DNA of 64,000 nt from an uncultured bacterium (GTDB lineage Bacteria > Oederibacteriota > JAAXVQ01 > JAUVAV01): the NCBI GenBank assembly GCA_963710755.1, contig CAVQBK010000003.1, forward strand, positions 480,001-544,000. Reading direction: 5' to 3'. Positions 12,737 to 12,949 of this stretch are shown piece after piece; the first letter of the stretch is position 1; each line of letters begins with the position of its first letter. The notes under the pieces were generated by a model. It was not told the origin of the DNA and did not search any database. It was given only the letters and a program-made list of their open reading frames with translations. The position numbers were made by a program, and so were the translations under genes.

Positions 12737-12949
12737 ATGGATCAACTTGAGCGATTGGAAAAGGCGTTTGATCAAAAGGTCGGGAAGATCGCCGCCGGCC
12801 ATACAGGCATTCGCGACAAGCACATGGCCGATCAAGTCTCGATCTTGATAAGACAACAAGTGCGACATCAAAAACCGACAGCTATTTTGGTTCAAGCCAA
12901 CGCCACATTGGACCATGTTTTGAGCTTGTGCCAGAACCAAACCAACTAA
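12737..12949 (+). CDS. 70-aa protein resembling the flagellin C-terminal helical domain only
   Basis: GIRDKHMADQVSILIRQQVRHQKPTAILVQANATLDHVLSL aligns with flagellin [41 protein letters not shown]. Confidence 0.7.
   Translation: MDQLERLEKAFDQKVGKIAAGHTGIRDKHMADQVSILIRQQVRHQKPTAILVQANATLDHVLSLCQNQTN

Follow-up and report, generated by a model that had tools for sequence, protein, structure and literature searches.

A short flagellin-derived reading frame behind fliC as a candidate ligand of the chaperone FliS in an uncultured bacterial genus

Downstream of a full-length flagellin gene of an uncultured bacterium lies an open reading frame of 70 codons whose predicted product resembles only the C-terminal helices of flagellin. 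Is it the dead end of a lost gene, a stretch of untranslated RNA in which an open frame is incidental, or a small protein with a partner of its own? The original prediction favoured a protein, acting as a FliS decoy or as a modulator of export or polymerisation. We analysed the whole 64,000-nucleotide stretch of DNA around the frame (the window; genome G000) together with other genomes of the candidate phylum, above all G001, the sole other genome of the genus. The genes concerned are as follows.

12737..12949, plus strand: mini-flagellin ORF, 70 codons with an ATG start, equivalent in flagellin to D0-C together with the end of helix D1-C
11760..12581, plus strand: fliC, full-length flagellin of 273 aa with Flagellin_N (E 8e-35) and Flagellin_C (E 1e-29); the G001 orthologue shares 94.5% identity with it
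17297..19114, plus strand: fliD, the filament cap, with FliD_N and FliD_C
19169..19597, plus strand: fliS, the sole FliS gene of the genome and the proposed partner of the mini-flagellin (Pfam FliS E 3e-36); AAGGAGG precedes the start at 19169

The frame is intact and sits, as had been described, behind the fliC hairpin with a terminator of its own, that is, between a T-poor hairpin and a hairpin followed by T5. Residues 1–66 align with residues 208–273 of the adjacent flagellin at 23 of 66 identical positions (35%), with no gaps and an E value of 1e-9 in BLASTP, which bears out the claimed gapless match to roughly the last 65 residues. The ATG is the counterpart of the internal Met208 of flagellin. 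The Flagellin_C model (PF00700), proposed earlier as a check, does match the product, but below the Pfam gathering score (17.2 bits, E 0.0067, against a cut-off of 23 bits; 15.8 bits, E 0.0455, in the scan of the whole genome). NCBIfam flagellin models match it with their C-terminal end at E values down to 2e-5. Flagellin_N of Pfam is absent from the ORF, in line with the earlier statement that it has no flagellin N-terminal region. A profile of the two mini-flagellin sequences (those of the window and of G001) matched 56 PDB sequences at E ≤ 1, 54 of which are chains that contain flagellin, matched at their C-terminal end in every case. Fragments that were crystallised on FliS are among them (1ORY_B, 5MAW_D, 6GOW_D, 6CH3_B and 4IWB_A; approximately residues 17–64 of the mini-flagellin); residues 24–64 align to 13–53 of 1ORY_B, and residues 17–64 to 255–302 of 304-residue flagellin chains. 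Judged by these alignments, the similarity is real homology and not chance. Modelled alone, the product forms three helices (residues 3–21, 25–44 and 47–69) with a mean pLDDT of 80. It is a basic protein of 7.9 kDa with a pI of 9.0, against 4.8 for the flagellin tail; FliS is acidic (pI 5.1).

The divergence from flagellin is as strong as had been stated. Over the 66 tail residues, flagellin tails of the phylum are 64–97% identical among themselves, whereas the mini-flagellin is 35–39% identical to any of them. It keeps 16 of the 32 invariant positions and differs at the other 16, where invariance was defined on the nine distinct full 66-residue tails among 18 distinct segments, the nine segments of 65 residues being left out. 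The lost positions include Asn17, a DVD motif, the hydrophobic Leu40 (now Gln) and Leu43 (now Arg), and Pro58; the IRD..MA, QAN and VLSL motifs are retained. After VLSL the sequence continues with Cys-Gln and a four-residue extension that varies between the two genomes. Lys17 replaces an Asn found in all nine full-length 66-residue tails and aligns to position 255 of the 304-residue PDB chains. The substitution named in the original prediction is confirmed; the replaced residue is presumably the FliW-associated Asn (Asn255). PMC6529632 does not mention a link between Asn255 and FliW. By these measures (a sub-cut-off Flagellin_C match, no Flagellin_N and the loss of half of the invariant residues), the product is outside the flagellin family in the operational sense.

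At the nucleotide level, the ORF and the fliC tail are 51.5% identical when aligned by codons, with a Jukes-Cantor distance of 0.78, about 154 estimated substitutions and no indel. The longest BLASTN matches span 8–11 nt. A silent cassette that recombines into fliC was considered and ruled out, because at this low identity and with no BLASTN match longer than 11 nt homologous recombination is not plausible. Among 1.84 billion representative proteins, no flagellin reached E 0.001 with the mini-flagellin and none is closer to it, and a foreign origin is not indicated by these comparisons.

The gene order suggests where the fragment came from. The window reads fliC, mini-flagellin ORF, a 4.3-kb block and fliD-fliS-HDOD, with a spacer of 155 nt between fliC and the ORF. 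A flgL-fliW-csrA-fliC2 cluster sits about 20 kb upstream of this fliC, and roughly 19.5 kb separates the two full-length flagellin genes. A genome of the same family (G003) and one of the same order (G012) both have fliC-fliC-fliD-fliS-HDOD with no genes between, fliD lying directly 3′ of the last tandem flagellin, and two further genomes (G014 and G025) carry three clustered flagellin tails each. The two codons before the mini-flagellin ATG (Val-Ala) still match flagellin. Apart from this in-frame extension of the tail match, the spacer (12582–12736) holds no flagellin trace at E < 0.1, and the degraded N-terminal sequence that would have marked a recent pseudogene was accordingly not seen there. 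Comparison of the spacer with those after the flagellin genes of G003, G000 fliC2 and G001 gave no convincing alignment. Flagellin_N matches elsewhere in the genome are confined to the two fliC genes and flgL, with no orphan N-terminal half; a split flagellin with a separate N-terminal gene is thereby ruled out. Since the ORF occupies the place of a further tandem fliC in the relatives, it is best read, from sequence and position and with high confidence, as the 5′-truncated relic of an additional tandem flagellin copy that has strongly diverged since. This origin goes beyond the original prediction.

The 4.3-kb block before fliD is probably an insertion, because G003 and G012 lack it at this position. 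It is made up of a release-factor-like gene of the baeRF family and a gene with HEAT repeats (13051–15719), and a tandem pair of minus-strand genes (15766–16311 and 16333–16920) that are 98% identical over 180 residues and belong to no Pfam family. Directly upstream of fliC, two methyltransferase-domain genes (296 and 546 aa) occupy 8956–11491. The region with these genes, between the two flagellin genes, may be a flagellin-modification island.

The congener G001 has the same layout of fliC, hairpin, spacer, 70-codon ORF and terminator hairpin, so that both genomes of the genus carry the ORF, starting and stopping alike and free of indels; a homologue of equal length downstream of fliC, which the original prediction proposed to look for in relatives, was found there and only there. 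Two independent sequences thus exist, and every test of selection is a single pairwise comparison. They differ at 36 of 210 nucleotides (10, 8 and 18 at the first, second and third codon positions) and at 15 of 70 residues. Estimates of dN/dS range from 0.18 to 0.34 across methods, with a dS of 0.39–0.62 similar to that of fliC (0.59–0.65). In a pairwise codon-model likelihood-ratio test against omega = 1, the whole ORF gave an omega of 0.33 (p 0.004), so that the neutral ratio named earlier as a counter-indication is rejected. The same test on the two genomes gave 0.13 (p 0.0002) for codons 24–66 and 0.43 (p 0.23) for codons 1–23, which show no significant constraint; fliC gave 0.05 (p 2e-40). 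When 36 substitutions were placed at random, with the numbers of transitions and transversions kept, 22.8 ± 2.4 amino-acid changes were expected against the 15 observed (P ~0.001), and the chance of meeting no stop was 0.18–0.26. The other five frames of the region show 30–33 differences, with stops. An antisense ORF (12707..12940) was rejected as coding: its frame shows 32 differences and is interrupted by a stop in G001. The adjoining spacer has one indel per about 30 substitutions, a rough rate based on a single indel. Free drift is hard to reconcile with an ungapped alignment to fliC over about 154 substitutions. From these two sequences, the ORF is under purifying selection and not a decaying pseudogene, as the original prediction had held of a recent one, and an old pseudogene is unlikely as well.

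Outside the genus, we found no relative. No homologue appeared in any of the nine other genomes of the family. A word-indexed search of a collection of 5.8 billion sequences returned two candidates, the ORF itself and the congener protein; a search of genome contigs returned one locus, that of the congener; and 524 pattern stretches matched in metagenome contigs included no relative. An exhaustive search of the 1.84 billion representatives gave the ORF itself and a 404-aa protein (E 5.7e-5; residues 12–47, in seven stretches), which is the only match other than the ORF and probably a repetitive helical protein of low-complexity-like sequence. Among 99 genomes of the phylum, every Flagellin_C match above the cut-off sits in an open frame of at least 261 aa, and the only short frames with this domain are the mini-flagellin ORF and a doubtful 147-aa frame in G073 (E 0.02). 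A match to an 80-aa frame in G006 (E 0.47), on a contig without flagellin, was taken as chance. In the ESM Atlas, 29 of 30 feature matches are clusters of 64–80-aa proteins annotated as Flagellin_C; these may come from genes cut off where a contig ends, and are no evidence for common stand-alone forms. Within the collections searched, the mini-flagellin is restricted to one genus, and a role general to flagella is therefore excluded.

If the ORF is expressed, its message would probably come from the fliC promoter. The signals around the two genes are these.

11570..11599, plus strand: sigma-28-like promoter of fliC (TAAG, 16 nt, GCGAATTA), from motif alignment
11720..11752, plus strand: fliC leader with a small hairpin bearing GGA in its loop and a GGA-bearing Shine-Dalgarno sequence, a CsrA-type two-site leader
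12588..12617, plus strand: hairpin after fliC with a perfect 13-bp stem and no T-run, a candidate leaky terminator or 3′-end stabiliser
12618..12736, plus strand: conserved spacer, of which 12682–12691 is predicted to pair with 12735–12743 and to occlude the mini-flagellin start codon
12955..12987, no strand assigned: GC-rich hairpin, then T5 on the plus strand, read by eye, the terminator of the mini-flagellin ORF

The motif at 11570–11599, which we take to be of the sigma-28 type from its resemblance to the consensus, lies about 160 nt upstream of fliC and leaves a long leader. It is common to the fliC of the window, a fliC of G001 and the second flagellin copies of G003 and G012, and is absent from the flagellin copies that follow csrA. 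All eight aligned flagellin leaders, that at 11700–11759 of the window among them, have a GGCAnGGATG block and, about 10 nt after the hairpin, an AxGGAGGA Shine-Dalgarno sequence; fliW and csrA are present in the genome, adjoining fliC2. This two-site layout is the one expected under CsrA repression, to which the fliC leaders would appear to be subject. To our knowledge, such leaders have not been studied in this candidate phylum.

The sigma-28-like and CsrA-type motifs are absent before the mini-flagellin ORF by reading, and a sigma-70 scan found no promoter in 12582–12736; the fliC promoter is the likely source of a transcript reaching the ORF. The hairpin after fliC ends in AACATTTCTC without a T-run, whereas other flagellin terminators have T8 and T7 (fliC2 and G003 fliC_B). 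It is kept in G001 with one compensatory pair change from A-U to G-C, and is probably a leaky terminator or a 3′-end stabiliser. The pattern suggests that read-through makes the ORF a distal cistron of the fliC transcript. G000 and G001 share 80.5% identity over the stretch from fliC to the ORF, with a single indel, of 1 nt, in the alignment, and about 40 nt around the ATG are identical. The consensus fold that pairs the AUG is weak and derived from two sequences only. The roughly 20 nt before the ATG contain nothing that resembles GGAGG, which confirms the weak ribosome-binding site noted earlier, while fliC and fliS both have AAGGAGG. The missing Shine-Dalgarno sequence and the predicted pairing of the AUG weigh against strong expression, and translation would be weak or conditional. 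Behind the ORF, a hairpin at approximately 12955–12983 is followed by T5, although the hairpin scan listed it on the minus strand only; G001 keeps it with changed stem bases, and it is possibly shared with the convergent baeRF gene. A salt-marsh metatranscriptome holds a 239-nt contig identical to fliC 12196–12434 and none over the mini-flagellin ORF, but contigs of this kind cannot show absence. The best DNA match comes from a soil metagenome and covers parts of both fliC and the ORF. An inverted repeat between the Shine-Dalgarno region of fliC and 12834–12851 was discarded, as reading showed that it is not conserved in G001. Rfam gave no match at E ≤ 1.

The most obvious candidate partner is FliS. 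The genome has a single PF02561 match and no second FliS paralogue. A model of the cognate FliS with the mini-flagellin scored 0.64 (three runs, 0.62–0.66) against 0.10 for the best of three controls, a mark attained by 58 out of 80 solved complexes and by 2 out of 110 mismatched pairs. The input alignments held 20 rows for FliS and two for the mini-flagellin. The partner had a pLDDT of at least 68, and contacts agreed across runs to at least 89%. The predicted interface is formed by residues 23–65 and by invariant FliS residues such as L38, L42, R71, I75 and L83. Identity to fliC is higher at this interface (13 of 29 positions) than elsewhere (10 of 37), not significantly so (p 0.19), and changes between the two mini-flagellins are fewer (4 of 29 against 11 of 41), again not significantly (p 0.24). 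By this modelling, the product still looks like a FliS client, as the original prediction had supposed; the agreement is in silico, and the pass may reflect likeness to solved FliS-flagellin complexes.

Published work on FliS and FliW fits the segment that is left. In Bacillus subtilis, D0-C of flagellin wraps around FliS and makes the main hydrophobic contact (contact area 1), whereas FliW needs the flagellin N-terminus, of which the N-terminal 72 residues (N72) are sufficient, and also protects the D1-C stretch Hag 240–260 (PMC6070490). In Campylobacter jejuni, FliS depends on the C-terminal D0 segment and FliW on the N-terminal one, and deletion of the last ten flagellin residues abolishes FliS binding, so that the C-terminal end has to be intact (PMC5466977). 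The mini-flagellin contains the segment homologous to the flagellin fragment crystallised on FliS, which its constrained part (24–66) overlaps, and is without the N-terminal segment used for FliW binding.

The explanation that we prefer, while putting it somewhat short of even, is that the ORF encodes a genus-restricted small protein, made from a flagellin fragment, that binds FliS and tunes flagellin export. In this scheme, an extra tandem flagellin gene would have lost its first ~207 codons and kept its 3′ end and terminator, with the internal Met208 codon turned into a start codon. The product would have diverged strongly and then have been kept by purifying selection as a basic three-helix protein. 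Its gene would probably be co-transcribed with fliC from the sigma-28-like promoter, by polymerase running on through the T-poor hairpin, and only sparsely translated. Residues 24–66 would occupy the single cellular FliS as a non-polymerising, probably non-exportable ligand; polymerisation appears to be precluded because the N-terminal helices are missing and the heptad leucines are replaced, and export is improbable because there is no N-terminal signal. By occupying the chaperone, or the FliS docking site on FlhA, the protein would tune flagellin export. Several features count against a FliS ligand, namely the replacement of L40 and L43 by Q and R, the loss of P58 and the four-residue C-terminal extension; moreover, flagellin would vastly exceed a decoy made in small amounts, which counts against the decoy reading. 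A more specific and rather doubtful version makes the protein a built-in brake or timer on filament growth, a non-exported FliS ligand made from the fliC transcript. Exported flagellin would release FliS, and the mini-flagellin would stay behind, build up in step with the sum of past fliC expression and gradually fill FliS or the site where FliS docks on FlhA, the gain being set by the inefficient start and the occluded AUG.

The alternatives differ in which of these observations they leave unexplained. That the ORF is a non-functional relic, a dead piece of a deleted flagellin copy that owes its open frame and low omega to luck or to a side effect, seems unlikely to us. Such a relic would account for the loss of 207 codons, promoter and Shine-Dalgarno sequence, for the restriction to one genus, for the sub-threshold Pfam match and for the disappearance of half of the invariant residues, and it would gain from the appreciable chance (0.18–0.26) of an open frame and from the relaxed N-terminal 23 codons (omega 0.43, p 0.23). 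It conflicts with the rejection of omega = 1 (p 0.004 for the whole ORF, p 0.0002 for codons 24–66), with amino-acid changes below the random number (P ~0.001) and with identical start and stop and no indel in both genomes; free drift to 35% identity, at a Jukes-Cantor distance of 0.78 from flagellin, should also have brought stops and indels into an alignment that has no gap. Still less probable is an element acting at the RNA level, in which 12582–12987 would be a conserved fliC 3′ UTR concerned with stability, termination or regulation and the ORF would be incidental. The spacer is nearly as conserved as the ORF (80.5% against 82.6% identity, with 69% for the region upstream of fliC), and the identical ~40 nt around the ATG, the compensatory change in the hairpin and an extensive predicted fold would all suit an RNA. 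Substitutions in the mini-flagellin frame are, in contrast, codon-periodic (10/8/18), which is not produced by RNA constraint, and the deficit of amino-acid changes is confined to that frame. No Rfam family matches at E ≤ 1, and 2 of 51 predicted pairs covary, in a comparison of two sequences only.

The evidence of selection serves equally well for a functional small protein whose partner is something other than FliS, which we regard as a minority possibility: the N-terminal D0/D1 helices of flagellin or hook-associated proteins, FlhA, or FliW. Within the filament, the N-terminal helices of flagellin form the surface on which D0-C and D1-C pack, and the mini-flagellin, modelled on its own as a three-helix unit, could cap or chaperone those helices in the cytoplasm. 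Q and R now stand in place of L40 and L43, heptad positions that would make this contact, and the constrained part corresponds to the D0-C end, the site of FliS, rather than to the D1-C part. For FliW, the protected stretch Hag 240–260 falls inside the mini-flagellin (residues 17–64 lie on 255–302), but the flagellin N-terminus that FliW needs (PMC6070490, PMC5466977) is missing and the invariant Asn17 has become Lys.

The FliS-ligand reading places the mini-flagellin among known systems without matching any of them. FliS acts as gatekeeper for the substrate that flagellar export handles in the greatest amount, and the partners of FliS known to us comprise full-length flagellins and a handful of small proteins unrelated to them. 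One of these, HP1076 of Helicobacter pylori, is reportedly a non-flagellin partner, and the anti-sigma factor FlgM is another; both are small helical FliS binders that modulate the late stage of flagellar export. The role proposed for the mini-flagellin would be analogous to theirs (FliS binding and modulation of late export). They are unrelated to flagellin in sequence, whereas the mini-flagellin is flagellin-derived and would use the groove in which the client sits. Silent or truncated tandem flagellin copies, such as flaB of Proteus mirabilis, stay close to the active gene and can be recombination donors. The mini-flagellin resembles them in being promoter-less, 5′-truncated and located beside a working flagellin gene, and differs in its divergence (51.5% nucleotide identity) and in a frame under purifying selection. 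With respect to the D1-C/D0-C segment of flagellin (FliC/Hag) that is the FliS client (1ORY, 5MAW and 6GOW; PMC6070490), it is homologous to exactly that segment, but stands alone without N-terminal export signal, N-terminal helices or D1 core, is basic instead of acidic and carries the four-residue C-terminal extension. FlaC of C. jejuni is a non-structural flagellin that binds FliS and is secreted through the flagellum (PMC5466977). Like FlaC, the mini-flagellin is derived from flagellin and has a proposed role other than filament building; unlike FlaC, which keeps the N- and C-terminal D0/D1, it has only the C-terminal helices. A literature search of the main texts of papers found no natural truncated flagellin acting on FliS.

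If the preferred reading is right, a selected, stand-alone FliS-binding tail would be a new way of modulating late flagellar export, and the locus would be a clear-cut example of recruitment, in which what remained of a truncated gene became a small protein rather than decaying. The evidence comes from one genus and two metagenome-derived genomes, and the host is uncultured; the mini-flagellin would provide a natural peptide, ready for use, with which to probe FliS and FlhA. In the wider phylum, Flagellin_C matches at E ≤ 0.05 occur in 15 of the 99 genomes sampled (12 of the 60 of high quality), so that flagella appear to be patchy, and one FliS homologue carries the NCBI label 'candidate division FCPU426'.
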